A DNA stretch of 64,000 bases. Origin: Pristiophorus japonicus. Lineage: Eukaryota. Positions 3,076 to 46,792 of this stretch are shown here, piece by piece (the stretch's first letter is position 1; each line of letters starts with the position of its first letter). Position numbers and translations under genes: made by a program. Location of the stretch: NCBI RefSeq assembly GCF_044704955.1, contig NC_091984.1, forward strand, positions 147,684,001-147,748,000, given 5' to 3'. The notes beneath the pieces are model-generated. The model was not told where the DNA came from and made no database searches. It was given only the letters and a program-made list of their open reading frames with translations.

Positions 3076-3089
3076 CGATCGCTGTCCCG

Positions 3090-21020: not shown

Positions 21021-21469
21021 TCCACGACAACCAAAAACATTTTGCCTAGGAATGTGCCTGCATAGTCTACATGGATCCTCGACCACAGTTTGGATGGCCA
21101 GGACCATAAACTTAGTGGTGCCTCTCTGGGTGCATTGCTCAATGGAGAGCAAGCACTGGCATACACATGACTCTAAATCTGAGTCGATGTCTCGCCACCA
21201 CACGTGGGATCTGGCTATGGCTTTCATCATTATGATGCCTGAGTGGGTGCTGTGTAGTTCCCCAATAAATGTGTCTCTGCTTTTCTTGGGCAATACCACA
21301 GGATTGCCCCACAAGAGACAGTCCGCCTGCAGGGACAGCTCATCTTTGCATCTATGGAATGGCTTAATCGCTTCCTGCATCTCCACTGGGACACTGGACC
21401 AGTTCCCATGGAGGACACAGTTTTTTTTACCAGTGCCAGTAAAGGATCCTGGCTGGTCCAGGTCCTGAC

Positions 21470-22329: not shown

Positions 22330-25300
22330 CTGATCTGGCGGGCCGTAATGAGGGATTTCTTATTCTCAAATGCCTCCATGACCATAAGCAAGTCCGCTGG
22401 CTGTGCCATTTCCACCCCAGTGGTGGGCAATGGTAGCCGACTGAGTGCAGTTCTCTGTGCCCGGTCTGTGGCGAATTACATCGTTGTATGCCAACAGCAT
22501 GAGCGCCCATCTTTGGATGCGGGCAGAGGCATTGGTATTTATCGTTTGCTCTCTGAGAATAGCGAAATGAGCGGCTTGTGATCTGTTTCAAGTTCGAACG
22601 TCAGGCCAAGCAAGTACTGGTGCATTTTTTTTACCCTGTAAACACATGCCAGAGCCTCTTTTTCAATCATGCTGTAGGCCCCTTCGGCCTTGGACAAACT
22701 CCTAGATGCATATGCAACCGGTTGCAAAATCCCCAATTCATTAGCCTGTTGTTACACACACCCGACCTTGTATGACGACGCATCGCAAGCTAACACTAGT
22801 CATTTACATGGGTTATACAGGACAAGCAGTTTGTTAGAACACAGTAAATTTCTGGCTTTCTTAAAAGCAGCCTCTTGTGAATTCCCCCATACCCAATCGT
22901 CTCCCCTGCGCAGTAGCGCATGCAAGGGTTCTAGTAGGGTGCTTAACCCAGGTCGGAAATTACCGAAGTAGTTCAGGAGTCCCAGAAACGACGGCAGTTC
23001 TGTGGTCACAGCGTGTTCTTGATGGCCTCCGTCTTGGCGTCGGTCGGTCTGATGCCATCTGCTGCGATCCTTCTTCCGAAGAATTCAACCTCCTGTGCCA
23101 GGAATACACACTTTGAGCGTTTCAACCTGAGCCCCACGCGATCCAACCGACTAAGAACCTCATCCATAGTGCTCCATAGTGTCCCAACCTGTAACCAATA
23201 TGTTGTCCTGGAAGACCAGTGTACAAGGAACCGACTTTAGCAGGCTTTCCATGTTTTGCTGGAAGATTGCTGCAGCCGACCGAATCCCGAACGGGCACCG
23301 GTTCTAAATGAATAGACCTTTGTGCGAGTTGATGCAGGTGGGGCCTTTTGAAGACTCCTCCAGCTCCTGCGCCATGTAGGCCGAGGTCAGGTCCAGCTTG
23401 TGACCGTCTTCCCTCCAGCAAGGTCGCAAAAGGGCGTCTGCCTTGGGTAGCGAAAAACGGTTAATTGTTACTTTATAGTCACCGCAAATTCTAACTGTAC
23501 TGTCCTCCTTGAGTATGGGAACAATCAGGCCGGCCCAGTGTTGAATCCCACCGGCGCGATGATGCCCTCACGTTACAGGTCCAGCTCGATTTCCACTTTT
23601 TCACGCTTCACCTACGGTACCGCCTGAGCCTTGTGGTGGATCGGTCGCATACCAGGAACCAAATGGATCTGCACTTGCGTCCCCGAGAAACTTCCAATGC
23701 CTGGCTCGAATAATGATGAGAACTTGCTTAGAACCTGGGTACATGCGGTGTCATCAACTGACGAAAGCGCTCGGATGTCATCCCAGTTCCAGCGGATTTT
23801 CCCCAGCCAGCTTCTGTCAAATAACGTGGGGGCATCCCCTGGCACAATCCATAGCGGGAGTTCGTGTACTGCTCCATCATAGGAGACTTTGACTTCAGCA
23901 CTGCCAATTACCGAGATTAGTTCCTTTGTATAAGTTCTTAATTTCGTGTGAATGGGGCTGAGCTTGGGCCTGTGTGCAATGGCTGCAGAACAATGGGACA
24001 CTTCAAACGAATGTGCAGGTGAGCTACAAACCCTGCAAACCCTGCAAATTACCACGTTGCAGAGGAAGATCGGTGCACAGTGGAGCAGACGGATCTGGGT
24101 GCCTTTTTCCCCCACAGCCTGTCGAAGGCTGTTTTACTCATTATGGACTGACTTGCTCCCGTGTACCGCTTCATTGACACTGGAATACCATTCAGTTCAA
24201 CTTTCAACATTACTGGTGGGCATTGCGTCGTGAACGTGTGTACCCCATACACCTCTGCCTCCTCAGTATGAGTTTCCAAATCCATTTGATTCCATCTGAT
24301 CCATCTTCCTCTGCAACGTGGTGGTTTGCAGGGTTTGCAGCTCGCCTGCACATTCGTTGGAGGTGACCCATTGTTCTGCAACCATTGAATGCATAGTGCT
24401 TAAAGCGGCATTGATGGGGCCGATGATCACCTCCACAGCACCAACAGGGTGTTAACTGCCTCGCATTAACAGATGATGACGGATTCTGGGTCAATTGAGG
24501 TCAGGCCACAGCAGCCAGTGTGCACATTCTGCCATTTACATTTCTGCTCAAAACCGACGTTACTTTATGCACAGTACTGGCCAAAACTTCTTTGTTCTGC
24601 GAAATCTGCTTGGTGTTGTCGCTGGTGGACATAAATGCTTAGGCTATCGTTCTGGTTTTATTCAGATTCGCAGTTTCTACAGTCAACAAGCTTGAGAAGG
24701 ATTGTCTCATGTCCAATGCCCACCACAAAAAAGTCTCTGAGCATTTGTTCTCGGAATGCCTCAAACTCACAATGTTCTGCAAGGTGCCTTAGTTCGGTGA
24801 CGTAACTTGCCACTTCCTGGTCTGCCGATCGTTGACGCGTGTAGAACCGATATCTCACCATCAAAAGGCTTTCCTTAGGATTTTGGTGCTCCTGGACCAG
24901 CGTACACAGTTCTTCATAGGATTTATCTGTTGGTTTAGCCGGGGCCAGGATATTCTTCATGAGGCCATAGGTAGTGGCCCTACAGACGGTTAGGAGGATC
25001 GCCCTTCGTTTGGTCACGTTCTCGTCCCCTTCCAGCTTGTTGGCTAAGAAGTATTGGTCGAGTCTCTCCACATAGTCCTCCCTACCATCCCTCTCCGAGA
25101 ACTTCTCCAGGATGCCAACTGTTCTTTGCATTTGCGCGCGGTTCGTTATCTCGTCACCAATTGTTGTGCTCAGAATAAATGCTCAGACCGATTACTGTGT
25201 GTAATGAGCAAGTGTGGCCTTAGCTCCTTTATTGTAGTTCCAGAGTGCAGGTACCTCGTGGGTGGCCTGCTTATATACTGTACTGCCAAGGGATGCTGGG

Positions 25301-25483
25301 ATCCCTTGGGACTCCAACAAGCTGGCCCTCTGGTGGGCAGGTGTGAAGCAGGTTACAATGTTAAAAGGGGTTAAATACATAACAACAATGCTCCTGTGAA
25401 GCACTCGGGGAGTTTTACTGTGTTAAAGGTGCTGTATAAAAGTTGCTGTTGTTGTTTGTTCTGAGTTAGCTGTTCCAACTGAG

Positions 25484-26012
25484 GTCGGGATATGACTCAC
25501 AGCTCAGACTGTGCGGCATCCAGTGATGCAATGTTGTATCGTGGGTTCAAGCCCCACTCCAGGGACCTGAGTGCAAAATAAAGACATACACTACTGTGCA
25601 GTCCTGAGGGAGTGCTGCACTGTCAGAGGGGCAGTACTGAGGGAGTGCTGCTCTGTCGCAGGAGCAGTACTGAGGGAGTGCCGCACTGTCAGAGGGGCAG
25701 TTCTGAGGGAGTGCTGCACTGTCAGAGGGGCAGTACTGAGGGAGTGCTGCATTGTCAGAGAGGCAGTACTGAGGGAGTGCTGCACTGTCGCAGGAGCAGT
25801 ACCGAGGGAGTGCCGCACTGTCAGAGGGGCAGTTCTGAGGGAGTGCTGCACTGTCAGAGGGGCAGTGCTGAGGGAGTGCTGCATTGTCAGAGAGGCAGTA
25901 CTGAGGGAGTGCTGCACCGTTCGAGGGGCAGTCCTGAGGGAGTGCTGCACTGTCGGAAGAGCAGTACTGAGGAAGTGCTGCACTTTCGGAGGGGCAGTAC
26001 TGAGGGGTTGCC
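25484..26012 (+). repeat. SINE head followed by about 13 tandem copies of a 33-bp SINE-body unit (GCAGTACTGAGGGAGTGCTGCACTGTCAGAGGG)
   Basis: gggttcaagccccactccag B-box, then the 33-bp array; inverted copy at 46044-46520. Confidence 0.9.
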
Positions 26013-27917
26013 TGTAGGTGGTTCTCTCAGCCGTACCAAAAACGCACCTCCTTCTACAAGTTCTGGACGATAGGGATTATATGGACAGATGAGACTCAGA
26101 CACACGTTTTTCGTGTTCAACCGTATTGTGTTTAATAAGATTAACAACACCACTCATAAACAGTGCAAAACAGTACAACCCTGGCTTGTCCAATAAGCCC
26201 TGCCGTGCTAAGTTACCACGGCTTAATAAAAGGACCCTCCCATGAAATAAACTAACACAGGACCACCCCCCGCCCAGCACTAAACCCCTTGGGTTTGGTT
26301 GGGACTTACAATCAACCCCTCACACAGCTAAATGGTCTTGTGGATGTGTAGGCGCAGGCAATATGCTCACCCGGATTGCCCGTTGTCTTGCTTGCAGCTT
26401 CTTCCTGAACGTCTCGCTCCTGGGTTTATTCCTGGGCTTTTCTGGAGCTTTTACCGGAGCTTTTTCCTGGGCTTTTTCCTGAGCTTCTTCCACCTGAGCT
26501 GGAGTTTGTTGCAAAGTGGCTCCTTATATCCCCAAAACCCATCACTTTTCCTCCCGCCAATATTGACCGATGAATTGACTCCAGTGATCTGTCTGGACCC
26601 CTCCTCCTCCCCCTCTCCCCGTGGCCTGGAGTGGTTCGTAGCCTTTGAAATCTTTGTGAAAAATGATGTTTTATTTTCCCGCTCCCAGGCCTTGCATCTG
26701 GAGAGACAATGGGTGCTGATTACTGGATGTCTGTCATTTCCTGAGTTGATGGCCCCCATTTGCAGGTAATGGGTTTCGATCACAAACCAATCTTGCTGAA
26801 CCGGCTTATCTCCTGGAAGACAATGGCCTGGCCATTTCCTGCCTTGCACCAGTTTGGGTTGGGACTGAGTCGTGACTGTGCTTTAATAATGCGAGGGCAC
26901 AGTGTCTCTGAGTTACCTCTCGGGGTATTGTTCCCAGTAATCACTTTAGATGGTGATGACATCAATGGGCCTGGGTTCCCTATTACCCAGCCTGTCAGTG
27001 TGAAATGTCCGGTTGTATATGAATGCAGCTTAGTGCCACCCCACAACCTCGCCAACAGTACAGTTCTTTCTTGGGGATTTGGATTTATGGAATTAAAATA
27101 TTGTTGATAGAAATGGCCAGAAAGCTGGTGCTACAATCCCCCTGATCATATTTTGTCACCAAAACCAGAAATATCTCGAATTGCGTTGTCTTCTGCTGCG
27201 GGAGGTGCATTGTGGGTCCATAACTGATCAATTACACCCGGGCTCCCGTTTCTTCTGATTTCCTGATTAAGACAAACAGATACAGCAGCACCGTTCTCTG
27301 AGCGCTTTTTCCCTCCACAGGTCGGGCTTTCGTTATTTACATATATATGCAGTTCGTTCCGCATTATCGAGTGCCCCCAGTTAAAATCTCTCCTGTTGGG
27401 GCCTCTTGCGGCTTGCGGCCGGTGAATAAGGAGGCGTCCATGGCGCCCTAGGCCGTGGTATCCGACTGTTTCTCCTTACTACCCCGCCATCTGGGTCATC
27501 ATCATCATCCTACACCATGGGAGGAAGACCAGCGTCCACCAGGCTCATTATTGTGCCCTGGTTTCTCTTTGCCTTTGTCTTCCCCACCTCGGGGTTAAAC
27601 AACTTGCACTGGTTGATATGGTAGCATTTTGTATGTTTCGGGAGTCTGACTGCATATACCATGGGGCTGGCCTTATCTACGATGTTATAAGGCCCCATGT
27701 ACAGTGGCTCGAATGCCCCCACTCGGGCACAGTTCCTGAACATTACCTGGTCTCCCACCTTCCACTCGTGGCTTCTCCGGGGATCAAGTAGCAACCGATG
27801 TTTCCCGGTGCTGGTTCCCCACGTTACTGGCTGCCTGCCAGTGAATCTGTTTTAAAACATCAAACAGATTCTGGACCAACCAGTCCCGGTTTACCTCGCG
27901 GTCATGAGCTCATGTGC
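26013..27917 (-). mobile_element. 3' remnant of retrovirus-like provirus 1: integrase C-terminus (27500-27917), unknown 3' cargo (about 26320-27400), PPT and 3' LTR (26013-26310)
   Basis: ORF 27510..27794 (GDQVM...EPLYMGPY) is similar to provirus 2 IN; LTR TGTAAG...CCTACA preceded by a purine tract; LTR and cargo duplicated at 44942-46043. Confidence 0.85.
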
Positions 27918-28735
27918 TGCAAGGTGTTAAATTTTCCACTCTACTCTGATTCATAGACCTCGGGAATTACAGGAAGGACTCCACGTAATGCAAAGTTTAG
28001 GCTTAAACCCAACTGTTATTTTGTTACACAAAAAACAACAAAACATTACAGAACAAGACTTCTTAGAGATTGACCGAAGACATACAATCGCCCATCCAGC
28101 CAGTTGCTGCTGTTGTCCATTGTCGGCTCGTGGAGCGAGGGAAGGTGTTGTGGCCCTGCTGCTGCTTCGTGGCTGTAGTTCATTGACCTGCTGGTCTGAG
28201 ATGTTTCTTCGACCTGTTCTTCCTCTCTCTGAACCTTTGTTCTCAGCTCTTACAGATATATCCATTCGATTATACACATCTCCTGCTGGGCTGCCTTTCA
28301 GTTAATGCAGCTGGATGAGTCTCGATGGCTGTGGTGATGGGTCTGGATCTGTTCGGACGGCCACAATTCACACATGTAATCGACGGGGCAAAAGATAACT
28401 CCTTATCTTTTGTGCCCCGTTATCCAAGAATGCACGCCTTGTGGGATTCTTTGTTGTCCTGGGTTTTCGCAGACTTGGTGTCTCCAGAGGAAACTGGTTT
28501 TCCCCTCCGGCCAATGAATCAATGGGCTCCTCTGCTTGATTGTATCAAACCCTTTGTCTCGACATTAATCGGGTCTCACTCCTGACCCCAGAAATCACAT
28601 TAATCAGTGATCAGTCATCACCTGCCCCAGGCTGGTGCTCTTTCTCCTTCCCTGCAGTCCCAAAGGTTTTCTTTTAAGCAATTTTAGTCCATGGCCTCTT
28701 GCTGTGCCTCGATCATGAAACATATAACCCTTACA
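27918..28735 (-). repeat. 3' LTR of provirus 2
   Basis: On the minus strand starts TGTAAG after the PPT and ends ...TTGCA; shares blocks with the 5' LTR (cactctactctgattc, cagacttggtgtctcc, taagcaatttt). Confidence 0.85.
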
Positions 28736-28749
28736 CTTCCCCCTTTAAT

Positions 28750-30086
28750 ATCTCTTGTTATAAACTCAGAGACATTACTACAGGTGGCTTCTTCTTCTTT
28801 CCATTGAGCTCTTTTGGGTGTATTGCAGTCTTCAGTCAAATCTCCATTGACATACTTTTTACAACAAAACAATGTTTGGCCTTAATCCATCTGACTTCAG
28901 TTTATACTTTTACAAACACTTTCGCCTTGGTTGATTTTAATAACCCTTCAAGATTCCCTTCCCTCATCTTTTGCTTTAATTAACAGGACAAGACGAATAG
29001 ATACAACACTATTACCAACTGTATAATTACTAACAAGTATAATACAATTCGAAACCAGGATGGGATCTCAATATTGAGTCCCACATCCCACTGTGGAGGG
29101 GCAATCATTTCCTCAATTTCCTCCCTTACTTTTTCGTTCTTTTGGTGTGACGTGTAATAATGTTTGTGGGACAACTCAATGTTCTTTAACAGTTCAGTCA
29201 AATGTTCGAGGAACAGTGGGATATAGTATCCAACACGCGATATGTATCCCTCGAGGTTCGTAACGTATCATTGACTGTAATATGGATATGTTTGTGGTCT
29301 GAGATAGGAATTATTCTTTCTTGTGCTACCTGTGCCTCTACCTGGGGTTTGAAACAAAAGGAAGAATCTGTCAGCATTTTAGGGAGAGGTTTTAATCTGC
29401 TTGCGATCAGTTCGGTCGCATTTACTGCCTTTGGTCAAGGTCACACAGGAATCAAAACCCTGCGTCCAATTCATTCCTGACCCAAAATCCTGTCATTGTC
29501 ATTTAAAAACAACCCCCACACCTCCCCTGCATTTCTGGCTAGATCCAACCACACAGACATAAATCCCTTGTTCCTCCTTCCACCACTTTTCCCAACACAA
29601 TTTCACCCCTTCTCTTGTTCCTCTGCTCCGCCTGTTTGAGTTATTACCCAGTTTCTCCCATTCTGTGGATGCATTAACTTTTCCCCTGTCTTTTTCTGTA
29701 ACCACCACCACCCTCCCATGGGGGCAATCCCTTTACATTCCAGACAAACTCGTCTCCCCTCTCTCACCCGTACATTCCTGGTCATGTTGTTTAGCCTGGG
29801 GCAGGACACTGACACCTCCCCAAGTTTACCCTCGGTTTGTCTGGAGTACTTGGTCGAATTTGACCCTAACCACCCTGGCCAGCTCCCAGTGTGAGCATAG
29901 GTGTTTTTGCCCTTGTTGCTCCGTATGGCTCCCCCTTGAGTTACAGTGGGGCCGGTTCCTCCCATACACCCGTGTGTAAGGAATGTCTCGGTGTCTCCCC
30001 GATCTCCCAATCCTTTAATAATAATGGCCATCCACAGGCCTATCCACAACGTCCACCTCCTCTCGTACCCTTGGCTCGATTCGCTC
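28750..30086 (-). pseudogene. env: env-position ORF: signal peptide, Ig-like domain (about 29500-29776), short stalk, heptad region, TM (28983-29057) and cytoplasmic tail; frameshifted
   Basis: WTLWIGLWMAIIIKG; NVRVREGRRVCLEC...WWWLQKKTG...KLCWEKWWKEEQGIYVC; LTELLKNIELSHK...VREEIEEM; WFRIVLYLLVIIQLVIVLYLFVL; located between IN and the PPT. Confidence 0.75.
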
Positions 30087-30274
30087 CTATAAAGACAAAA
30101 ATGAAAGAAATACCTTTGCTCTGTGGGGCCTCCCCCTCACAGATCCTCCTTCAGTTTTTCACAAATGTACATAACTCCTTTTTACAATCACTGCTTCCTT
30201 CTCCTTTTATCCCGATGCTTGGGCTTACAGAGGCTCGGGGGTGGAGATGGAGGAGGTGTCCAGGGCACCCTAGG

Positions 30275-33200
30275 TCACAGTACCTGACCACTCCACCTTA
30301 CTGCTCCGTCCCTTACTTCTCCATCCTCATCATCCCACAGTATTGGTGGGAGGCTTACACTGATCAAACTCATTATTGTTCCTGGGGCCTTGGCCCGCTT
30401 TTTATTTTTCTCTCCGGGGTTGTACAGCTTACACTGGTTTATATGGAACCATTTTATATGTTTTGGCAGCTGGATTGCGTACACCATAGGGCTTGCCTTG
30501 TCTACAATGCTATATGGTCCTTTGTACAATGGTTCAAATGCCCCTATTCGGGCATAATTCCTGACCATTACCTGATCCCCTGCCCTCCATTCCTGTGTAA
30601 CCCAGAGTTCCAGCAGCAGTTTATTCTGCTGGTGCTGCCTGCCCATATTGTTAGCTGCTTCCCAATGCAGCCCCTTCAGAGTACCATACAGATCTCTGAC
30701 AAACCTGTCCCGTGTGATCTCTTTAACCTGCGTTTCAGTCAGGACTGGTGCTAGGATATAGGTCGGGGTCCTCATTAGTCTCCCTGTCATCATGGCATGT
30801 GGGGAGTGTCCCGTACTCTTAGAGAGACTGGCTCGGTGGTTCATCAGTATTCGGGGTAGGGTCTCATCCCATTTCTTCGGGGTATCTCCTATCTCCTTCC
30901 TAAGCCTCTCTTTTAATGTCCGATTTGTCCTCTACTGGATCTAACGATTAGGGGTTATACGCCACATGAAATTTCCCCTGTATCCCTAACAGCTTTAGGG
31001 TGGCCTGCATTACTGCTCCGGTGAAATGACTCCCTTGATCTGATTCCACTATCAGGGGCAGTCCCCATTGAGAAAATACTTCTCGCACCAGAATCTTTGC
31101 TGTGACTATCGCGGTGGCCCCGACATGGAAAAGCTTCAACCCATTTTGTAAAGAGATGTATTAACACCAAGCAATATTTATTGCCTCTGCCTGAGGTGGG
31201 CAGTGGCCCAATGAAATCTATCTGTATAGACTGCCATGGCCCCTCTACCCTCCTCGTGTGTCCCAACGGAGCCTTCCTCGGTGGGGGTCTGGATTGTTTG
31301 TGGCACATACCAGACAATTCTGGCAATAATCCCTGACATCACTTCTAAGCCCGTACACCATCCCACGGCTTCTACTTTATTCCACATTGTTTCTGGCCCT
31401 GGATGTCCAGCTCCTGGACCCACATGCACCAGCTGCAAGAATTCTTCCCTGCACTGCCCTGGCACGATCCAACTATGTCCCTTGAACAACATTCCTTGCT
31501 TTACTGCTATGTCTGCAGCTCCCAAAGATCCCACTGCAGACTTCCCGTCTATTTTGTCCCTAATCGCTGCTCTAAGGTCAGCATCCCGTAGCTGAGCCTG
31601 TTTTAAATCAGGCGACAATGCGACTTCTTTGGGCCTCTCTCTGCCTGTTACAGCCGTGATCTGTCCACAGTGACATGGGTCCCAAGGTGTCACTTCTCCT
31701 GCCCCTGTTTTAGCCAGTGTGTCTGCTTTCTCATTCCCTTCCCACTTGGGCTCTGTCTTAGCGTGTGCTTTGACCTTTTGGATGTAGTCACCCTTCTGGT
31801 CCGTACCCTTGACGTGCAAAATGACTTTTAACAATGGAACCATCACCAACCATTTTCCATCTGAGGACTTAAACCCTCGCCTCGCCAATATGGCTAAATA
31901 CTCTGTACAGGAGTTAGAAATGAACATGGAGTCTGAACATATCGTATAGGGAGTTGGGAATTCGTTCGGGTGTGTGACTACATACGCTACTGCTGCTAGC
32001 TCGGTCTGCTGCGTACTTAAAGTGTTGGGGATTTTATGGCTTTCTTCATCACTGCCTCTGGATCGTAAATCCCACAGCCTGTCTTTCTCTCTCTGTTTAT
32101 TACTGAACTAGACCCATCTACATAGACGTCCCTGCCTGTCAGGTGTTCTCCTGCTCAGAATCCCACATCTACATCCCACACTCCTTCCACTGAACACACA
32201 TGAGCTGCCCCCGGATAAACCAGGCTCGGGGCGAGCTTTGGTTCTCCTGGCCTCTCGACCTTCAGGTCTAACTGAGTAAGCAACAATGTCCAGCGGGCAA
32301 TCCTGTTACTGCTCACTGTCCCATCTTTCATTCTATCATCCAGTAACACTTGTGTCATGGTGTGACAGGTCAGTAAAGTTACTGTAGCTAACCCTGTGAG
32401 CGATCGAAAATGCTTCACTGCCCAAAATGTTGCTAACAGATGTCGTTCGCAATTCGAAAAGCTCTTTTCTATTTCGGTGAGAACTCGGGAGGCGTAGGCC
32501 ACCGGTCTCAGCTTGCTGTGTCGCTCCTGGAGTAACACTGCACTCAAACTGTCCCCAGTCATTGCTACCTCCAGACTAAAGTCCTGGTCCCCATTTACTG
32601 CTCCCGATGCTGATGCTGTCTGTAACACCTCTTTTAACCAAATGAAAGTTTCCTGACAAGTCTCACTCCATTCCCACTCTACTCCTTTCCTAAGAAGCCT
32701 CAACAAAGGAGCTGCCATGGTTATATATCCCTCTATGAATTCCCTGCAGTAACCCGTTATTCCCAGGAAAGACCTTACTCCAGACACGTCCTTAGGAACA
32801 GGCAGTTCCTGGACTGTCTTTCTCTTAGCTCTATCGATGGCCCTTTCTCCTGCCCTAATGGTCAAACCTAGAAACTGCACCTCCTCTTTGCCTATTTGAG
32901 CTTTCTTGGGACTGACTTTAAAACCTGCTTCTTTCAACAAATGCAGTAACTAACTCAATAATGGCCTGTGGTCCTCCGCACTTTCGGAGAATAACAACAG
33001 GTCATCCACGTATTGGACCAACCGGTCTGGCTGACTAAAACCGTTTAATGCCTCGGCCATACTTTGGTGAAAGATCGAGGGACTGTTGTGAAACCCTTGT
33101 GGAAGACATGTCCACGTATACTGCTGACCTTTAAAGGTAAAGGTAGATTTATACTGGTCCTCCCGTCTCAGGGGAATGGACCAAAACCCGTTTGAAATGT

Positions 33201-34078
33201 CCAGCACTGTGAAAGTTGTTGTGGCCGCAGGGATACTCCCGATCAAATCCGCTACCACTGCTACCGTGGGCGCACAGGCTGGAATATTTTTATTCAGGAT
33301 TTGGTCATCTACCGTGGCCCTCCATGAGTTATCGGGCTTCTTTACTGGCCATAGGGGTGAGTTTACATGTGTGGCTATGGTCCTCAACACACCTTGATCC
33401 ACCAGGGAATTTATAGCAGTTTCCAAATCCCTTTCTGCTTCCCGGGGAAAATTATACTGTTTCTAGGGTCGTGTCATCGAATCCCCATCTATCTTCACCT
33501 CTACCCCAGATACTCTCCCGCAATCGTGCTTGTGCATTGCAAACGCATCCATATTCTCCCGTACATACCTTGATACCGGGCCGGAGTGTTATCGACGAAT
33601 CGTTCTCAGTCATAACTCCCTTTCGGCTTCATCGTGCAGGTGCTGCCTTTGTCTGTACTGTCCCTGGGAATCACTACGATCTCTCCCATCTTATCTGCAT
33701 CAACTGCCCCCCATAGACAATTGTTTTCCATATCCACTATGGTGTGGTGTGTCAACATGCAGTCGGCCCCGAGAACTCCCGAACCGGGCTGTTCCCACTT
33801 CATTAAAATGCCCTCCCATTTCATTATGTTCGGTCCTAACTCTACGGTTAAGGGTTTCCACACTGCCCCAGCCTGCTCATTACCCGTAAAACCCACCAGT
33901 GTAAATGGACTCTGCTCGACCACGGGGAAGTGGTCAGATTCGGTGAGTGGACAACCGTGCTAGAGGCTCCTGTATCTACTAGATCCCTTCCCCTAACTGT
34001 TTCCACCTTCACATCCACACATGGCCTGCCCCACCCATCATATATGAACAGACACAGGTATTCTGGCTGGGCACACCG
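30275..34078 (-). pseudogene. pol: pol of provirus 2: protease, RT, degenerate RNase H (tether), second RNase H, integrase
   Basis: LVDTGAS; LDISNGF, LPQGFHNSP, QYVDDLL; RPVAYASRVL...CERHLLA; VYVDGSS...QQTELAAV...SDSMF...KAH...GNEKAD; IDFIGPLP, SDQGSHF, GPY. Confidence 0.93.
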
Positions 34079-37000
34079 TCACAGTGGGGGTGCCGACACA
34101 TTGGGTCCCTTTTCTCCCACTGCTGCGTCCAGCTTTCCTCCACCCGTGCCCATAACCTGCTGTAATGCGGCCACTAAAACCTGCACTGGGTCGTCGGCTA
34201 CCTTCTTCTGGCCTTTTCCTGCCTCAGCACCTCGTACCCTGGCTTCCCTCCTTTAGAGAGCCTACAATCCTTGCTCCAGTGTCCCAACTTCCCACAGTTA
34301 AAACATTCACCTTTAGATCGACCCGCATTACCTCCCTCTTGTCTCCATTCTTTCTATGGCCTAACCTCTCCTTTTACTTCGTGCACCTTCCCGTTTAGTT
34401 TCTCCTCCTCCCCTTGCCTAGACTTAAAGCTAGAGTTAATCTTCTCAGCACCCCTGCCTCTGTATTCTGGAGATGGTCTGGGTCAAACCATGCTTTGACC
34501 TTTGCTCTGAGCCGTGGCAAACTGTTACCATTACGGTTCTCAGCCAATGGTCCCTGGGTTCCCCTATTAAATCTGCCCGTACCAGATTTCCTACAGCAGC
34601 CCTAAAATAAATCGCCCACAGTCTGTCTGCAAACGTATCGGGTGATTCGTTTACTTGCTGCCTAGTCTGTTCTACCTGCCAGAACGGACTACCCTGACTG
34701 TACCCGAGCACTGCCATCATTTGCTCCTTTAAGCCCTGTGGGGTTCCTGCACCTAACTTGGTGGCTGTCGACAAGCTCTGATAAAGCTTCCCCTCCAGCG
34801 AGAGCAGTGTTAGCTGCACTTTCTCCTCCTCGCTGCAGTTATTGATACCCGCTATCTGCTCTATATTAGTAAAATGAACAGAGGCATCTCCTCCTTGCTT
34901 TAACTGTACTACACCCGTCAGCATCTCCTGCAGCTGAAGCGGTGTGTATGGGATCACTAGTCGCTCTGTAATGGTGCCGGACCACCATTTGGGGGGGTGG
35001 GCTGAATTTCTGCTGTCTCAAAGGACACATCGGTTTCAGGGGTCCCGGTGCCTCGGGAGCCGGCTGATTTTTTTTTTTTTATTTCAAAATATACTTTATT
35101 CATAAAAAGAATCTGTACAGTACATTCAATGGTATTTCATTACATTTCGCTGCGGTCAGCAATCCCTTACAATACATCTGGGTGCCGACGGCAGTTTCGT
35201 TCGTTACATTTCTCGTTTTTCTGTTCAACTGCGATTCAGTACAATAAACAGGGTACATTGTGGTACATTTACTCAAATTACATTTCATGTGTTACAATAC
35301 AGAGCCCGGAATGGGTGATGGTACATTTACATTTTTTCTTTTCAAACTTGCATTTCATAACACACCTTACATTGTACATGGCACGACATTGGTGTTTACA
35401 GGTTTGGTGCTCTATGTACACAAAGTGTAAATTACAAATACAAATACAAATACAGCCCGAGGGAGTTTGGTGCTGATTTCTGCCCCCGGGTTTTCCGTGG
35501 CGGAAGGGTTTTAGACTGTGGCCCTATCCCACCGTGCCTTTGCGGCGACTGCACCAATTTTCAGTGCGTCCCTCAGCACGTATTCCTGGATCTTGGATTG
35601 CGCCAGTCTGCAACATGCGGACGTGGTCATCTCCTTGTTCTGGAAGACCAGCAAGTTTCGGCAAGACCAAAGAGCGTCTTTGACCGAGTTGATGGCCCTC
35701 CAGCAGCAGGTGATGTCTGTCTCGGTGTGTGTCCCTGGGAACAGCCCGTAGAGCACAGAGTCCTGTGTTACGGAGCTGCTTGGGATGAACCTCGACAGCA
35801 ACCACTGCATCTCTTTCCAGACCTGCGTCGCAAAGGCACAATCCTGAAGGAGATGGGTGACAGTCTCGTCCGCCCCGCAGCCGGCCCGGGGGCACCGTGC
35901 CGTGCTGCTGAGGCGTCGGCTGTGCATGAACACTCTGACGGGTAGGGCCCCCCTCACCGCCAACCAAGCTACGTCTTGGTGCTTGTGTGTGAGCTTTGGC
36001 GATGAGACGTTCTGCCAAACAAGTTCGACAGTCCGCTCAGGGAACCACCCGACAGGGTCCACCGTCTCCTTCTTTCGGAGGGCGTCCAGGACCTTACGTG
36101 CTGACCACTGTTTGATGGCCTTGTGGTCAAAGGGGTTTCTTTTGAAGAACTTTTCCACGAAGGACAGGTGGACAGCATGGTCCAACTGGTGGGGGCGTTT
36201 CGCGGCAGCGTGGCCAGACCCATCCTTCTCAACAATGGGGACAGGTAGAACCTCAGCACGTAGTGACACTTGGTGTTTGCGTACTGGGGGGCTGTGCATA
36301 GCTTGATGCAGCCGCACACAAAGGTGGCCATCAGGATGAGGGCCACGTTCGGAACGTCCTTTCCTCCACTGTCCAGAGATTTGTACATCGTGTCTCTGCG
36401 GACACGGTCCATTTTGGATCTCCAGACAAAGTGGAAGACGGCCCGGGTGACTGCCGCAGCGCTGCAGCGTGAGATGGGCCAGACCTGCGCCACGTACAAC
36501 AACACCGAGAGCACCTCGCTCCTGATGACCAGGTTCTTGCCTGTGATGGAAAGGGAGCGCTGCTCCCAAAATGACAGTTTCTGTCTGACCTTGGCAATGC
36601 GCTCGTCCCAGTTTTTGGCGCACGCCCCGTCCGCTCCGAACCATATTCCCAGCACCTTCAGGAAATCTGGCTTGACGGTGAAGGGAATGGAGGCTCGGTC
36701 GGTCCAGTGACCAAAGAGCATGGCCTCGCTTTTGGTGCGGTTGACCTTTGCTCCCGAGGCCAGTTCAAACTGGTCGCAGATTGCGAGCAATCTGCGGACC
36801 GACTGCGTGTCCGAGCAAAAGACGGCGACGTCGTCCATGTACAGCGAGGTTTTGACCTGGGCGCCTCCGCTGCCTGGGATCGTCACCCCTCTGATGCCCG
36901 CGTCCTTCCTGATGGACTCGGCAAAGGGAGCCGGCTGATGCTCGTGATACTCGGGCCCATCGTCTGACTCTTTCCCCTCTGGATCCCAATCTTCCTCGCC

Positions 37001-37606
37001 TGTTCCAGGTGCCCTGAGACAAACCATCCCTTTGGTCCCGTCTAACTCTGCCGTTAATTGGTGGATCTTTTCCTTACAAGGTCCGTGTTCTGCTCTCGCG
37101 TAACCCTGTTTCTGGGCTACCTGATAGGCTATCGACTCTCCTGAGCTGGTCCTCTGCCTCTTTGGCTCTTTCTAAATGCCTTTCACTTTGTTCAATGTGG
37201 GTCTGCTGCTGCTTTTTGCACTCGGTCACCTGGCATTGTAAATACTCAAAGTGATTCCGTGCCGTTTCTTCCTTCCTACCCCGGTCCTGCCTTTCCTTCT
37301 CCAAACTGCCTACCTCGCCCTTTAACCCTTTATTCTCCTTCTCCAGCTTTCCTATCCTTTCTCTGAACAGTTGTGTCTGCTTCTGCAGGCACATGAGCCA
37401 AACCTCCTTTTTTGACCCTTTGTGGTTACTACTGACTGTCCACTCTGCTGTTTTTCCTGCGGATCCCCAGAGTGCAGCATTTCCCGTGCCCATAGCCCTG
37501 AAATGTTCAATTTGTTGCCTATATATCCAGCTACCTTAGCCTCCATGGACTTCCTACGATGGCTGTTAGCTGCGGGCTCTACCACGTTTTGCTGCGGTGA
37601 ACCCAT
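34079..37606 (-). pseudogene. gag: gag of provirus 2 (coiled-coil N-region, capsid, one CCHC knuckle), interrupted by Tx1
   Basis: IPYTPLQLQEM, QQVNESPDTFADRL, CFNCGKLGHWSKDC at about 34264-34305; ends NVSAPPL-TGA. Confidence 0.88.
35069..36925 (-). mobile_element. 5'-truncated Tx1-clade LINE with poly(A) tail and 14-bp TSD
   Basis: SLYMDDVAVF, KVLGIWF, CPRAGCGADETVTHLLQDC knuckle; AATAAA plus poly(A); GGGAGCCGGCTGAT at 35055-35068 and 36926-36939. Confidence 0.95.
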
Positions 37607-37619
37607 TTCCAGTGCCTCT

Positions 37620-38300
37620 GGCTGAGAAATTCTCCCTGACTACCTTGGTGTCCCCTGAGACCACCTCGCAGTGTCCTGCGGTTCCTGTTACTCTGGCTTC
37701 TCTCTGTGGCTACCCTAGTCGACCCGAGACTACTCCGGCCTGTCAGAGACTTTCTCTCCTGGTCCCCTAGTCACCCTTGAGATCACCTTTGGCCTCCCTG
37801 AGATGACCCCGTGACAATATTGGCTTTTCTCTGTGACTATCCCAGTCAACTGAGATTACTCCAGACTATCCGAGACTGTTTCTCTCCTCAGGCTGCCCTG
37901 GCCGCCCGTGAGATTATCCCTGGCCTCCCTGAGACCCCTGTGCAGACTACCTGCGATTACTTCTCCCGGTTGCTGCCCTCGTCAGCCGGAGCTCTTCTGC
38001 TACTCCTGGTCCCCCTTGAGATTCCCTTGGTCTCCCTGAGACCCCTTCGCAGACTACCTGCGGCTTTCTCAGTGGCTACACTTGTCAACCCGGGATTATT
38101 CTAGCCTACCCAAGACTGTTCCTTCCTCTGCTGGCTGCCCTAGCTGCCCTTGAGAGTACAATGGTCTCCCTCAGACCACTGAGCAACTACCTGAGACTTC
38201 TTTTCTCAGTGGCTACCCTAATCGACGGAGACGACTCAAGCCTATCAGACCCTGTTACTCTCCTGGTCGCCCTAGCCGCCCTTGAGAAGATCCTTTTCGA
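37620..38300. repeat. Imperfect tandem repeats (about 130 bp) in the provirus 2 leader
   Basis: gtggctaccctagtcgacccgagactactcc-like units at about 37702, 37830, 38068 and 38205. Confidence 0.75.
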
Positions 38301-38386
38301 TCACCTTAGCTGACCTTAGACATAACCAAGCCTCCCTCGGGATTTTTGCTCTGGTATGTGTCCGTGATACTATTCCCAAAGCCGAG

Positions 38387-38404
38387 GTCCTGCCGCGGTC
38401 ACCA
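38387..38404 (-). promoter_or_regulatory. Primer-binding site complementary to tRNA-Arg(UCG)
   Basis: Plus strand GTCCTGCCGCGGTCACCA vs the recalled vertebrate tRNA-Arg-TCG 3' end GTCCTGCCGCGGTCGCCA (17/18); 5 nt from the LTR end. Confidence 0.85.
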
Positions 38405-39068
38405 ATTTCTGTAGGTTGTTTTTCACTCTACTCTGATTCTTAGGCCTGGGAACTTGTAGTGGGAAAGGACAACACGTGGTACAACATTTAGGCTTCACCC
38501 AGTGTCAGTTTTATTATGCACAAAAACCGTCGAAAACTACAGGACTAGACTTCTGAGAGAAATCGACTGAAATCATACAATTGCCCTTCCTGGCTGTAGC
38601 TATTGTAGGTTCGTGGTCATTGGTTCCGTGACCGGTTGGTTCTTCTTCTGGCCGTTCTCTGCAGTGCTGTTACTTCTGTGTACGTTCCGTACAACATGTT
38701 CTTCCGTCCATTCATCTGTTCGTGCTTTCGACCTGTGTCCATCTGTACAGGTGTCCTTCTACTTCTTCTGTGTGCTTCTTCTTCCGTCTGTTCCTGTCCT
38801 TGTTCCATCTCCTGCTGAGCTGCTTCTAGCTCACATATTTATATCCAGGTTATGACAGATCTCCCGCCACTGCGGTTTCTGATAGTGTTTGCATCAATAC
38901 ATTGTTTTGTGGTCCCCTTGGTTGATTGATTACAATAATGAACTCGTCTGTTTTCCCATTTGCACACTGAGTCTGCAAGGCTCAAGTTGATTTCTCATCT
39001 TAACACCTCATCCTAAAAAATGTGCAACTGTTGTGGTTCCTTTGTTGTCAGGTCCTTTTACAGACTTG

Positions 39069-41939
39069 GGGCTAGAACCTCCTCTTTTATTGCCTGTTTA
39101 ATGCCCACTTAACACCCATTTTACCACTGAAATGACATATAACGCCCAGATATCACCCATTTTGGCACAAAATGGAAACTGACGGGCTTTTTTAGGAGAC
39201 TTGTCGCCGAGCGTTACTTTCCCAATGGGCTTAACGCAGAGAATAAATATTATCGCCCGCCTACTTTTTTGGGGCGAAATCAGCAGAATGGGCAAATTCA
39301 ACGCCCAGATTATCACTCAGCGTTACTTTCCTCATGGAATTAACGCCGAGATTCAACATTAACACCCGCCGACTGTTTTTTGTCATGAAGAGCATATTTA
39401 CCCAAAGTAACGGCCATGGAGATCACCCACCGTCAATTTCACCACCTCGTACACATATCGCCCACAATATCGCTCGCTCAAAAAACCACCCACAAAAAGT
39501 GGAACTAACCAGAACGAATCACAGCGTTATGGACGCCGTGATGTAGATCACATGTCGCGTCCTTTCACCTCGACAGAGTTCGGATGTACTCTGCAGGTCG
39601 TTGGAGTTGATTTGAACATCTCTGAAAACATCTTGACCACACTGTGACCGATTGGAATTGAAGAGGTGTGCTCGTCGGGACATTCTTTGATTGTGTGCAA
39701 TCGGTGACAGACAGAGAGCTACTGCAATGGGGCCTGTCCTTTCTCACCCTCTCTTGGTGACCAAATATATGCAGCAGACTCAACATCGCTGAAGGAACGC
39801 GACATTGCATTATGTGCCCAATGTACAAAATAACAGTCAGATGAGGAGGACCAGACGTTACACCCCCCGGATAGGAGAAGCATTCTTACCTCGACTTGCC
39901 TGACACCACCTGCCTTCGGAGACTGCGCTTCCACAAAGAGGTTATCACTGAGGTATGCCAGCTGATAAGGGCAGGCCTACAGTCTACCAGCACCATCAGA
40001 ACTGCACTGTCCATCGAGGTCAAAGTCACCACGCCACTATCGTTCTATGCTTCGGGTTCTTTTCAGGCCACAGCTGGCGACATTTGCAGACTTTCTCAGC
40101 ATGCCACACATTGCTGCATTAGACAGGTCACTGAAGCCCTGTACGCACGCAGGAGGGACTTGATTAGCTTCCCTATGACCAGGAAGGCACAGAGTGAGAG
40201 GGTTCGAGGTTTCTCCAGAATTGCAAACTTCCCCAAGATGCAGGGAGCAATAGACTACGCACATCGCGATGTGGGCACCTTTTCAGGATGCCGCAAGGGA
40301 TTCCACTACCTGAATGTCCAGCTGATTGTCGACCACCAGCAAATTATACTGGCAGTGAATGCTCAATTTCTGGGCAGCATCTATGCTGCACACATCCTGC
40401 ATGAGAGCATTGTATCTGACTTGTTTAACATTGAGCCACAAGGTTAATGCTGGAAACTTGGGGCCAAAGGATATGGCCTTGCCACCTGGCTGATGACCCC
40501 CTGCGTGACACCCACACTGAGGCCGAGAGGTGATACAACGAGAGCCACAGAGCAACTCGCAATATTGTGGAGAAAACCATTGGAGTGCTGAAGCAGCGCT
40601 TTCGATGCCTGGACCACTCAGGTGGTGAGCTCCAATACTACCCTGAGCAGGTAGCTCAATTCGTGGTGATGTGCTCCATGCTGCACAACTTGGCTATCAG
40701 GAGGGGACAAGAATTGTCTGATGAGCCTGACAGTCCACCTCACCAGAGAGAGGAAGAGGAGGACGAGGAGGCGGACGCCGACATCAGGTCAGACAATCAG
40801 GCTGATGCTGAAGCCATGCCCCCGCCCTTCTGTAGATCGCATGAAAGGGCCCATGGTGGCATGATAGCTGCAAGCGCCTTACGCCAGGAGCTCATCAATG
40901 ATCGCTTTGCCTGAAAGAACGTTGGTGTTATTTCCACAGCTGACACACTGCTGGGTGTGCAGGTCATAAATTAATTGTGGGCATCACCTTGGTGACTGTT
41001 AAAGTTTACTTTGATTATATCCTTTGATGTTAACAAATCACCAGCGTGTTACGGTACAGCTATCTGAGCCAATGTGCTGCAAGGTTTTGTTCAATAAAAA
41101 ACATTTAAACCGAACATTAGTCTGAAATCATCAGTATTTCTGTACAAACCAACCCTTCCCCCCACCCACCCCACTTCTCCTCCCCAACTCTACCCCTTCC
41201 CCTTCCCCTTCTGACTCCAAGCCGCCTGACCGCGGAGGTTCTCAGGCGATGCTTCATTGTGAGGTGGGTGGTGATGGACAAAGCACTGCTTGGACGGATA
41301 TGGGAGAAGATGGTCCCAAGGTGGGAACGTGCTTCGAGCCAGAAGCGAGATGTTGCTCCTGGCTCTCATGTGTGGTTGGCAATGGGGTTGCATCACCTTG
41401 GGGTGTAGTGCGGCACTCGGGATCACTGGGAGCCCTCTGCCACCAGTGTTCCTGGCTACCAGCTCCAGGGCCTCCTCCATCCCTTACATTTTATATGTTA
41501 CTTGTGGGACAAAAACTCGACGCCAACTATGTTCTTGGTGCTTAGTGCGCTTTTTGCTGCTGGTGAATCTCCCTCGTGCCTCCCACAACAGCCAGACAGG
41601 CACACACCACAGCCACACACGCTTTCAGTGCCTCTGAGCTCCCTCTCTCTCTGTCTCCTCTTCTGCGTATGTCATGGTTACCCTTGACCTCCAGAATCGA
41701 GGGAATGGACCATTGCCATGCTGTGGCTAAGGACGACCACACTTTACAACAGAAGGTCAGAAAAATTTAACGCTGCCGCCCATTTGAACTCGTTCGCGGT
41801 AACGCCCATTTTCAAAGATGTAAACTAAGTGTTTTGAGAATGGGCGAGAAGCCGGCGATCTGAAAATCCTTTTTTACCACCCACACTGGAAATCACGCCC
41901 ATTTTTGGGTGCTAAGCTCAAAAGTGGAGGTTCTAGCCC
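39069..41939 (+). mobile_element. Harbinger/PIF transposon with both ends intact, inserted in the 5' LTR
   Basis: 20-bp TIR GGGCTAGAACCTCC(T/A)CTTTT; 3-bp TSD TTG; removing it restores cagacttggtgtctcc as in the 3' LTR. Confidence 0.95.
39727..40914 (+). pseudogene. Harbinger transposase (HARBI1-like), frameshifted
   Basis: CLRRLRFHKE, FYASGSFQ, QGAIDYAH, KGFHYLNVQL, EKTIGVLKQRFRCL. Confidence 0.93.
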
Positions 41940-42279
41940 TTGGTGTCTCCGGTGAGCTTGTTTTCCGCACCCTGGTCAATCAAGTTCAGGGCCTCACGTA
42001 ACAACTCCATTCTTGTTATGCATGGAGTCAGTTTTAGTTCCTGACCACAGAATGTCCTTAATTGTCCAGCTTCTTTCCAAAAGCTGGTATTAAGCAATTT
42101 TTAGTTCAAGGTCTCCTTCTGTGATTTTCTGAAGATTGGTAACCTTACACACAACACCTCACCTCTCCCACCCCCCAAAACCGCCCCTCGCCCAACCACA
42201 ACACCGCCCCCAACTCCCACCCCCAACACAACTCCTCTCCATCCCCCAACACCGTCCCTCTCCCAACTCCAACACCCAC

Positions 42280-44020: not shown

Positions 44021-44528
44021 CTTCCTCAGTAACTGGGAATGATCCAGGGGAACCCCACAGGGACTACATGGACTTCCTCAGTAACTGAGAATGATCCAGG
44101 GGAACCCAACAGGGACTACATGGACTTCCTCAGTAACTGGGAATGATCCAGGGGAACTCAACAGGGACTACATGGACTTCCTCAGTAACTGGGAATGATC
44201 CAGGGGAACTCAACAGGGACTACATGGACTTCCTCAGTAACTGAGAATGATCCAGGGGAACCCAACAGGGACAACATGGACTTCCTCAGTAACTGAGAAT
44301 GATCCAGGGGAACCCAACAGGGGCTACATGGAATTCCTCAGTAACTGAGAATGATCCAGGGGAACCCAACAGGGGCTACATGGACTTCCTCAGTAACTGA
44401 GAATGATCCAGGGGAACCCCACAGGGGCTACATGGAATTCCTCAGTAACTGGGAATGATCCAGGGGAACCAACAGGGGCTACATGGACTGCCTCAGTAAC
44501 TGAGAATGATCCAGGGGAACCAACAGGA
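44021..44528. repeat. 52-bp minisatellite, about 10 copies
   Basis: CTTCCTCAGTAACTGAGAATGATCCAGGGGAACCCAACAGGGACTACATGGA repeated. Confidence 0.95.
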
Positions 44529-44941: not shown

Positions 44942-46043
44942 ATTGTAGCTCCAGCTTTCTGGCCATTTCTATCAACAATACTTTAAATCCTTAAATCCAA
45001 ATCCCCAAGAAAGAACTGTACTGTTTAGGGTGCTTGTGGGGGTGGCACTGAGGTGCATTCATATACAACCGGACATTTCACACTGACAGGCTGGGTGGCA
45101 GGGAACCCAGGCCCATTGATGTCATCACCATCTAAAGTGATTCCTGGGAACAATATCCCGAGAGGTAACTCAGAGACACTGTGCCTTCGCATTGTTAAAG
45201 CACAGTCACCACTCAGTCCCAACCCAAACTGGTGCAGGACAGGAAATGGCCGGCCCATTGTCTTCCAGAAGATAAGCCGGTTAAGCAAGATCGGTTTGTG
45301 ATCGAAACCCATTACCTGCTAATGGGGGCCATCAACTCAGGAAACGACAGACATCCAGTAATCAGCACCCATTGTCTCTCCAGATGCAAGGCCTGGGAGC
45401 GGGAAAACAAAACACAATTTTTCACAAAGATTTCAAAGGCTACGAGCTGCTCCAGGACACGGGGAGGTGGGGGGTCCAAACAGATCACCGGAGTCAATCC
45501 ATCGGTCAGTATTGGCGGGAGGAAAGGTGATGGGTTTTGGGGATATAAGGAGCCGCTTTCCAAAAAGCTCCAGCTCAGGAGGAAGAACGCTACGGAAAAA
45601 GCTCAGGAAAAAGCCCAGGAAAAAGCTCAGAAAAAACCCAGGAGTGAGACGTTCAGGAAGAAGCTGCAAGCAAGACATCGGGCAATCAGGGTGAGCATAT
45701 TGCCTGCGCCTACACATCTGCAAGAACACTTAGCTGTGTGAGGGGGGGTTTGAAAGTCCCAACCAAACCCAAGGGGTTTAGTGCTGCGGGGGGGTCCTGT
45801 GTTAGTTTATTTCACGGGAGGGTTCTTTTATTAAGCCGTGGTAACTTAGCACGGCAGGGCTTATTGGACAAGCCAGGGTTGTACTGTTTTGCACTGTTTA
45901 TGAGTGGTGTTGTTAATCTTATTCAACATAATACAGTTGAGCCTGAAAAATATGTGTCCGAGTCTGATCTATCCATATAATCCTATCGTCCAGAACTTGT
46001 AGTAGGAGGTGCATTTACGTTACGCCCGAGAAACCCACCTACA
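44942..46043 (+). mobile_element. Second copy of provirus 1 3' cargo, PPT and LTR (45751-46043)
   Basis: agggggggtt PPT followed by TGAAAG...CCTACA; inverted match to 26013-27137. Confidence 0.85.
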
Positions 46044-46520
46044 GGCACCCCCTCAGTACTGCCTCTCCGATAGTGCGGCACTCCCTCAATACTGCCCCTC
46101 CGGCAGTGCGGCACCCCCTCAGTACTGCCAATCTGACAGTGCGGCACTCCCTCAGTCCCGTCACTCTGACAGTGTGGCACTCCCTCAGTACTGCCCCACC
46201 AACATTGCGGCACTCCCTCAGTACTGACGCTCCGACAGTGCGGCATTCCCTCAGTACTGCCCCACCAACATTGCGGCACTCCCTCAGTACTGCCCCCCTG
46301 ACAGTGCAGCACTCCCTCAGTACTGCCCCTCTGACAGTGCAGCACTCCCACAGTACTGCCCCTCTGACAGTGCAGCACTCCCTCAGGACTGCACAGTAGT
46401 GTATGTCTTTATTTTACACTCAGGTCCCTGGAGTGGGGCTTGAACCCACAATACAACATTGCATCACTGGATGCCGCACAGTCTGAGCTGTGAGTCATAT
46501 CCCGACCTCAGTTGGAACAG
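46044..46520 (-). repeat. 33-bp SINE-derived tandem array plus SINE head (right-arm copy)
   Basis: About 11 copies of gcactccctcagtactgcccctctgacagtgca. Confidence 0.9.
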
Positions 46521-46792
46521 CTAACTCAGAACAAACAACAACAGCAACTTTTATACAGCACCTTTAACACAGTAAAACTCCCCGAGCGCTTCACAGGAGC
46601 GTTATAGAATAAAGATTGACAGCGAGCCACGTAAGAAGACATTGAAAATTGCAGCTCAGTCAAATTGTGAGGGAAATTGGCAGTGCTGTCTTCATACCAA
46701 AAGGGGGCGATGTTGGTTCTGAAAAGACCACATTTTTTGACAATTTCTGTGTCACTCAATTGATTGGTTTGTAAAACCCGTTTGTACCTAAC

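Follow-up and report, generated by a model that had tools for sequence, protein, structure and literature searches.

A dead, probably chimeric endogenous retrovirus of the sawshark Pristiophorus japonicus and the predicted F-type envelope of its family

The locus and its features

The genome of the sawshark Pristiophorus japonicus (RefSeq assembly GCF_044704955.1) contains, within a stretch of 64,000 nucleotides (nt) of contig NC_091984.1 (positions 147,684,001 to 147,748,000; hereafter the window), a degraded endogenous retrovirus (ERV) that runs on the minus strand from 42149 to 27918; all feature coordinates given here are positions in the window. An initial annotation, made from the letters alone, had described it as a lokiretrovirus-like provirus with two RNase H domains. 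The provirus and both domains are indeed present; all the motifs quoted are found on the minus strand, and Pfam recognises RVT_1, the tether and RNase_H. The element is, however, not a lokiretrovirus but a member of a deep-branching family of canonical retroviruses. Taken by itself the locus is an ordinary dead ERV copy, and its value lies in the family.

A scan of the 5.9-Gb host genome with the stretch that spans reverse transcriptase (RT) and tether gave at least 145 scored matches, 90 of them at 77–100% (the window family) and 55 at 67–71% (a sister family); ten copies, five from each family, were examined in detail. Many sister-family copies retain frames of over 1000 amino acids (aa), and the sister Env has at least 98 genomic matches at 96–100%. 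Published work is cited below by PubMed Central identifier.

Both outer bounds of the provirus are termini of long terminal repeats (LTRs), the ends being legible in the sequence. Translation of the minus strand gives the order gag, protease, RT, tether, RNase H, integrase and env, and the overall layout (LTR, primer binding site (PBS), gag, pro, pol with RT, tether, RNase H and integrase, env, polypurine tract, LTR) matches that of canonical Retroviridae. The order of integrase and env after RNase H thus stands as first described, with weak integrase matches, but env lacks about 1.1 kb including the fusion core. The features are as follows.

41940..42149, minus strand: upstream piece of the 5′ LTR, subfamily A, starting TGTAAG; 91% identity to the LTR of L033, a full copy of the family
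39069..41939, plus strand: PIF/Harbinger DNA transposon within the 5′ LTR, with terminal inverted repeats and a 3-bp CAA duplication; DDE_Tnp_4 E 3e-9, ends read
38410..39068, minus strand: downstream piece of the 5′ LTR, terminating CA; 91% to the L033 LTR, Kimura two-parameter (K2P) distance 0.092
38387..38404, minus strand: PBS for tRNA-Arg(UCG); agrees at 17 of 18 bases with a host tRNA-Arg(tcg) gene at its 3′ end, CCA included (all 18 in L033)
34082..37606, minus strand: gag, with a coiled-coil-rich N-terminal part and a CCHC knuckle; broken, split by a long interspersed nuclear element (LINE), start approximate; 31–52% to sister-family Gag
35069..36925, minus strand: 5′-truncated LINE in gag, with a poly(A) tail and a 14-bp duplication; RVT_1 and zf-RVT matches
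34079..34081, minus strand: in-frame TGA (TGA CGG) at the gag/pro-pol boundary, predicted readthrough site; the TGA is kept in related copies
33570..34078, minus strand: protease with DTG motif, frameshifted; 49–60% to the N-terminus of sister-family Pol
32857..33345, minus strand: RT core with LPQG and YVDD, one in-frame stop; RVT_1 E 1e-32 (Pfam) and trees
32275..32670, minus strand: tether, a degenerate RNase H without three catalytic carboxylates; Pfam and comparison with Ty3
31700..32124, minus strand: second RNase H, broken in two by a frameshift, with the residues D-E-D-H-D; PF00075 E 7e-10
30386..31465, minus strand: integrase with HHCC, core and GPY-type C-terminal parts, frameshifted; weak Pfam integrase matches, tree of family and sister copies
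28983..30136, minus strand: env remnant with a likely signal peptide, Ig-like region, C-terminal helices and a transmembrane segment; matches sister Env in two parts
28736..28746, minus strand: polypurine tract, from reading the sequence
27918..28735, minus strand: 3′ LTR of a differing subfamily (B); 71–72% to family-A LTRs
27140..27912, minus strand: remnant resembling a PBS and, behind it, the integrase C-terminus of a related subfamily as a second, deleted internal fragment; 69% to the integrase of the first element

The second integrase fragment has weak matches to Integrase_p58_C and SH3_Tf2-1 and is cut by another element at 27137. No 3′ open reading frame was found between env and the polypurine tract of the window copy. 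The leader between PBS and gag (37694–38290) holds degenerate repeats of about 131 bp.

Placement of the reverse transcriptase and integrase

Three RT trees were built: a FastTree of 152 rows, a maximum-likelihood (ML) tree of 64 rows, and an ML tree of 46 rows from which 23 rows had been dropped and to which five foamy rows had been added. The references for snakehead retrovirus (SnRV), P0241 and L041, carry a motif identical to the SnRV row of Dataset S3 of PMC7947760; seven lokiretroviral (Loki) RTs were labelled by motif, two of them bearing fish or frog source names, and the gamma, epsilon, ERV-L and Gypsy labels were assigned here from motifs, Pfam and source names. A scan for foamy motifs gave 28 loci, of which 12 were not foamy Pol and were dropped.

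In all three trees the window RT lies within canonical Retroviridae and outside Loki. Both ML trees join it with Loki and Retroviridae against Gypsy (support 100/100) and place it within Retroviridae (100/99 with 64 rows, 100/98 with 46), and it is excluded from the Loki (100/99), foamy (100/100) and gamma/epsilon (100/98) clades. Approximately unbiased (AU) tests reject a grouping of shark and Loki (p 0.0023) and give p 0.049 for a position as sister to gamma/epsilon. An integrase tree of 47 rows, containing the family copy L040 and the sister family (mammalian CGIN1 is not among the rows), likewise has a Loki clade that excludes the family. The expected placement inside the lokiretroviruses or as sister to Retroviridae is therefore not supported, the RT lying within the canonical group at 100/98–99. 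The RT did not fall inside Gypsy, spuma or epsilon clades either, placements that the initial annotation had singled out as adverse; an SnRV-related grade had not been considered there.

The nearest RT clade comprises amphibian and coelacanth ERVs (94/95, 46-row ML tree). Their Pols, annotated as ‘protein NYNRIN-like’ (P0003–P0008), are the closest outside cartilaginous fish at 43–46% over RT and tether, with one protein ranking above them at 70%; the motifs of P0004, P0007 and P0008 were not found in the available Loki supplement of PMC7947760, consistent with their not being published Loki. Among viral contigs the only related locus found is SnRV (L041). The RT thus likely belongs to a deep SnRV-related grade (clade Huo), within which its exact position is weakly supported.

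The tether and the second RNase H

Pfam identifies the tether by RT_RNaseH_2 and RT_RNaseH (E 1e-19 and 3e-17). It had been described as lacking its first catalytic Asp, and the loss proves larger: in comparison with Ty3 the first Asp is replaced by Ala, the Glu by His and the next Asp by Cys, while three Gypsy controls retain all three catalytic positions. Its Gypsy-like appearance, once offered as a sign of a basal lineage, is by itself a weak argument because Ty3 and murine leukaemia virus (MLV) score alike against it (E 0.033 and 0.048). In the second RNase H, D-E-D-H-D is complete but, owing to the frameshift, spread over more than one frame. A search of the PDB with this domain gave a 165-aa RNase H, 2lsn, as its sole match, which we take to be the RNase H of a foamy virus. 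In a tree of 33 rows and 151 columns, in which the sister family supplied the domain, it groups with the Loki and foamy domains (98/94) and away from those of SnRV and gamma/epsilon.

That the element is a retrovirus rather than Gypsy is supported by the RT clade. The dual layout is not diagnostic of Loki because a tether followed by RNase H is common to all retroviruses. The combination typical of Metaviridae, a single active RNase H with an RT among Gypsy, was not found. The notion of a basal lineage holds in part: the RNase H tree, Env homology and stop-codon context support a deep-branching lineage with Loki-like traits, but the RT sits inside canonical Retroviridae.

Primer binding and the gag–pol stop

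Besides the tRNA-Arg(UCG) site of the window, one PBS type of the sister family matches tRNA-Arg(CCG), and the PBS of SnRV matches tRNA-Arg(ACG). The Loki PBS, read at two of two loci, differs from that of the family and matches a Met tRNA gene in one of the two host loci checked. The copies L021, L023, L025, L029 and L033 show that the window and sister families together use at least three PBS sequences, two of which match Arg tRNAs (UCG, CCG).

In all ten copies, five per family, an in-frame TGA separates gag from pol. The stop context is TGA-CGG in the window and TGA-TGT, TGA-CGT or TGA-TGG in its five relatives; it is TGA-CTA in the two sister copies read and in both Loki loci, and TAG-GGC in SnRV. 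UGA-CUA and UGA-CGG are described as type II readthrough signals, and UGA readthrough has already been reported for SSSV, the swim bladder sarcoma virus of salmon, and for two ERVs (PMC13517186). The 120 nt past the gag stop yielded no stable structure (sister family, z −0.83; window, z +0.81 for a stretch that begins one base late).

The envelope

Features of the sister Env are an RQKR site, a transmembrane segment at the C-terminus and, near the N-terminus, an Ig_3 match (E 0.002) that is under the curated cutoff. CX6CC and immunosuppressive domain (ISD) motifs were looked for and neither is present.

Against SnRV Env the sister Env aligns with 26% identity over 374 columns (score 171; z 10 and 5.6), with controls of 50 for the reversed sequence, at most 103 for local shuffles and at most 95 for 369 unrelated slices. 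For Loki, Envs were taken from two loci in a metagenome collection that carry the Loki RT motif, and both match PF00523 in Pfam. The sister Env scores 168 and 142 against them (z 8.6 and 7.8 with BLOSUM45, equalled by 0 of 200 local shuffles; z 7.8 and 7.2 with BLOSUM62), and the paired proteins stay collinear for up to about 480 aa, a stretch that takes in the cleavage site and cysteine motifs. Env pieces from three window-family copies were significant against Loki in six of six comparisons (z 4.9–11.1). Among 368 background slices the top score of 166 belongs to a Baculo_F-bearing protein, followed by 120 and 96. Homology of the family Env to both Loki and SnRV Env is thus well supported by pairwise tests.

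The neighbours of shark Env in the ESM Atlas are Baculo_F and Fusion_gly clusters (0.93–0.94), and SnRV Env lies near the same cluster types; the Atlas gives 0.9 or more to 4–10 in 100 shuffled proteins and is uncalibrated for parts. When shark Env was compared directly with two Baculo_F proteins, similarity was weak and exceeded that of shuffles in one of four tests. The family Env is predicted to be a fusogen of the paramyxovirus F type. In the frog protein P0003, residues 1190–1291, directly after integrase, form a signal-peptide-like stretch and an Ig domain, possibly the start of an Ig-bearing env; this tail gave no significant alignment with the shark Ig-like region (49 against a shuffle maximum of 68).

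Decay and age of the copies

The frame of RT and tether in the window copy holds three in-frame stops, and protease, RNase H and integrase are frameshifted. Relative to copy L034, env has an internal deletion of about 1.1 kb (some 400 aa) near 29370 that removes the predicted F-type core, leaving matches to sister Env aa 6–201 and 601–758 only. About 4.7 kb of the 27918–42149 span is made up of two unrelated insertions, the Harbinger in the 5′ LTR and the LINE in gag. The two LTRs share 75% identity with 152 gap columns and belong to different subfamilies, and LTR-based dating of this copy was rejected for that reason. No target-site duplication is present around the provirus. We infer a chimeric copy, joined to a provirus of another subfamily that lay in tandem with it or close by.

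On contig C8, the four copies sampled have flanks and the Harbinger in common, with the LINE in one of them only; they are therefore segmental duplicates. At about 143.4–148.1 Mb of C8 (L078–L085) a segmentally duplicated block contains many repeats of the provirus together with its flanks, at 95–99% identity, and the LINE insertion marks a late branch there. Damage to the window copy would have come from mutation, insertion of the Harbinger, a recombination or deletion joining the subfamily-B 3′ end, segmental duplication and the late LINE.

Three of the five sister-family copies have LTR pairs with K2P distances of 0.002–0.004 and 4-bp duplications; the pair of the fourth is 95.7% identical by raw BLAST, and the fifth lies among satellite repeats, where no pair was resolved. 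One of the five window-family copies has a clean pair (K2P 0.043). With both substitution rates quoted in PMC4422223 (2.2e-9 and 2.2e-10), these distances correspond to about 0.5–9 million years for the sister family and about 10–100 million years for the window family.

Interpretation and alternatives

We consider it probable that the window holds a dead, chimeric copy of a shark ERV whose RT belongs to canonical Retroviridae, with the clade Huo grade as its likely place, and whose family bears a predicted F-type, Loki-related Env. The parent virus would likely have worked much as SnRV does. A tRNA-Arg, for which the PBS match is at hand, would prime reverse transcription, and Gag-Pol would be made by readthrough of the in-frame UGA. 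The second RNase H, judging by its residues, would remove RNA while the first serves as a structural tether. Integration would generate a 4-bp duplication, as is seen in four copies other than that of the window, and entry would be mediated by a furin-cleaved class I fusion protein of the F type with an N-terminal Ig-like region.

Several results weigh against this reading. Class II, Odin and fish foamy-like references are absent from the RT trees; the wider RT group with SnRV and ERV-L is weak (80/87 with 46 rows, an open polytomy with 64), an exclusive grouping of shark and SnRV is marginally rejected (AU p 0.042) and one of shark and foamy is not rejected (p 0.18). All evidence on Env comes from other copies because the window env lacks its core, and the F-type call draws on a language-model search and on pairwise alignment. 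Neither shark nor SnRV Env has a Fusion_gly/PF00523 match in Pfam, searching PDB sequences with Env returned no meaningful match, and a hidden Markov model of shark Envs only missed SnRV Env at E ≤ 10. The shark-only profile reached 1% against Loki and 11% against SnRV in hhalign; with SnRV added to the profile the figure was 83% (E 9e-6). Direct comparison of SnRV and Loki Envs is weak (z 1.4–3.8), and AlphaFold2 models of the sister Env gave unusable folds with a predicted local distance difference test (pLDDT) score of 33.9 and 31.5.

That the element is after all a true lokiretrovirus, the first in cartilaginous fish, is highly improbable. The family does share with lokiretroviruses the tether plus new RNase H, an RNase H on the Loki/foamy side, a homologous Env and, in the sister family, the UGA-CUA context found in both Loki loci, and Loki gives higher scores than SnRV does against its tether and integrase (integrase 38–39% identical to Loki). 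Its RT and integrase nevertheless lie outside the Loki clade, which together with the AU test largely refutes the idea; the window RT has LPQG where all Loki rows read in Dataset S3 of PMC7947760 have PFG, the Arg PBS differs from that of Loki, and the family Env has an additional N-terminal Ig-like region of about 200 aa. A Loki query across the host genome found only 34–36% matches among at least 53 scored in a stricter first look, and Wang and Han report Loki in none of six chondrichthyan genomes (PMC7947760). Odin, for its part, is described as lacking env (PMC9040795), whereas the window family has one.

A separate deep canonical lineage of shark, amphibian and coelacanth ERVs, lying outside the SnRV clade near the base of Retroviridae or beside the foamy viruses, is unlikely, even though the nearest RTs, the basal polytomy and the AU results for SnRV and foamy can all be read in its favour. 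SnRV also differs from the family in its UAG-GGC stop (family UGA), in an RNase H outside the Loki/foamy group, in an Env of 1134 aa (about 800 in the family) and in a more degenerate tether. What the two have in common speaks for kinship: a canonical RT (42–44% identity), tRNA-Arg priming, an in-frame gag-pol stop, an alignable Env without CX6CC or ISD, and a coiled-coil-rich Gag with one CCHC knuckle, the sister-family Gag showing zf-CCHC and weak coiled-coil matches in Pfam like that of SnRV. With foamy viruses the family shares the RNase H group, but its RT is only 33–36% identical and falls outside the foamy clade, and its Gag, in frame with pol, carries a CCHC knuckle. In foamy viruses Gag is not known to have such a knuckle, and Pol is made separately. 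Clade Huo (Xu et al. 2018) is moreover described as broad and found in all major vertebrate lineages (PMC6001957), and SnRV-related ERVs, likened here by description only, are already known from a chimaera, the CmiERV lineage I of the elephant shark (PMC4422223).

Two further alternatives concern Env. A canonical backbone might have acquired its F-type env by lateral capture, with a lokiretrovirus or an RNA virus as donor, in which case the env would not be ancestral; this would bear only on where env came from and agrees with the RT placement. Retroviruses often swap domains (PMC7947760), shark Env is about equally close to Loki and SnRV Env, and both groups infect fish. Such a capture must predate the split from SnRV or have occurred twice, and the RNase H type and readthrough context are Loki-like too, for which shared ancestry is the simpler account; foamy Env is also F-like by structure (PMC11468914). 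We regard capture as somewhat unlikely. It is quite improbable that composition or convergence, through coiled coils and cysteines, rather than homology accounts for the likeness of Env to Loki and F proteins. Weak profile scores, unusable folds and the high Atlas values of shuffled proteins would fit such a view, but reversed and locally shuffled controls were far lower in every comparison of shark with Loki, the alignment is collinear over about 480 aa, and the lone high background score came from the Baculo_F-bearing protein.

If the preferred placement in canonical Retroviridae with a Loki-related Env is taken further, we tentatively propose that sharks keep a young, env-bearing canonical lineage with an ancestral toolkit common to Loki, namely an F-type envelope, an RNase H of the Loki/foamy type, a weakly degenerated tether and UGA-C readthrough, its Env bridging Loki and SnRV. 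Should this be true, the F-type envelope would predate the split of Loki from canonical retroviruses and would later have been replaced in the familiar orthoretroviruses. Wang and Han reported that Loki Env bears no significant similarity to the Env of canonical retroviruses (PMC7947760), independent acquisition of env has been preferred (PMC9040795), and the F-like structure of foamy Env has been contrasted with orthoretroviral Env (PMC11468914). The alignment of the family Env to both Loki and SnRV Env conflicts with this published view of independent origins, and a lineage with canonical RT and such an Env makes scenarios of env origin testable by sequence and structure. It also predicts an F-type fusogen in SnRV, which is classed among the orthoretroviruses; no statement to that effect was found in the literature searched, which excluded subscription journals, Hart et al. 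1996 and the 251 fusogens of Viro3D.

Further observations

The named Env homologues in the database come from sawshark (92% and 71%) and skate (54%). Two sawshark gene models, P0124 (Niban-1-like) and P0221 (zinc finger 419-like), hold pieces of the family's Env and integrase and are likely mis-joined models rather than cases of co-option. Sister-family copies lie 10.4 kb apart at C19:47412074/47422493 and C37:31878543/31888952, likely as tandem proviruses with a common LTR. The sister-family pol frame in L024 (about 2580–3138) extends some 190 aa beyond integrase in a low-complexity, Pro/Arg-rich tail.

Within the window, the provirus is flanked at 25387–27137 and 44942–46603 by another repeat, which holds a 33-bp tandem array and is present as two inverted copies (87%); one of these copies truncates the second integrase fragment. 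Ordinary Gypsy-like fragments, 25–32% to the Pol of the provirus family and with a weak Retrotrans_gag match, occur at about 18400–24000 and at 24658–25182. A 52-bp tandem array of about ten copies with 95% matches occupies 44021–44527, and a C-rich minisatellite lies at 3196–3820.

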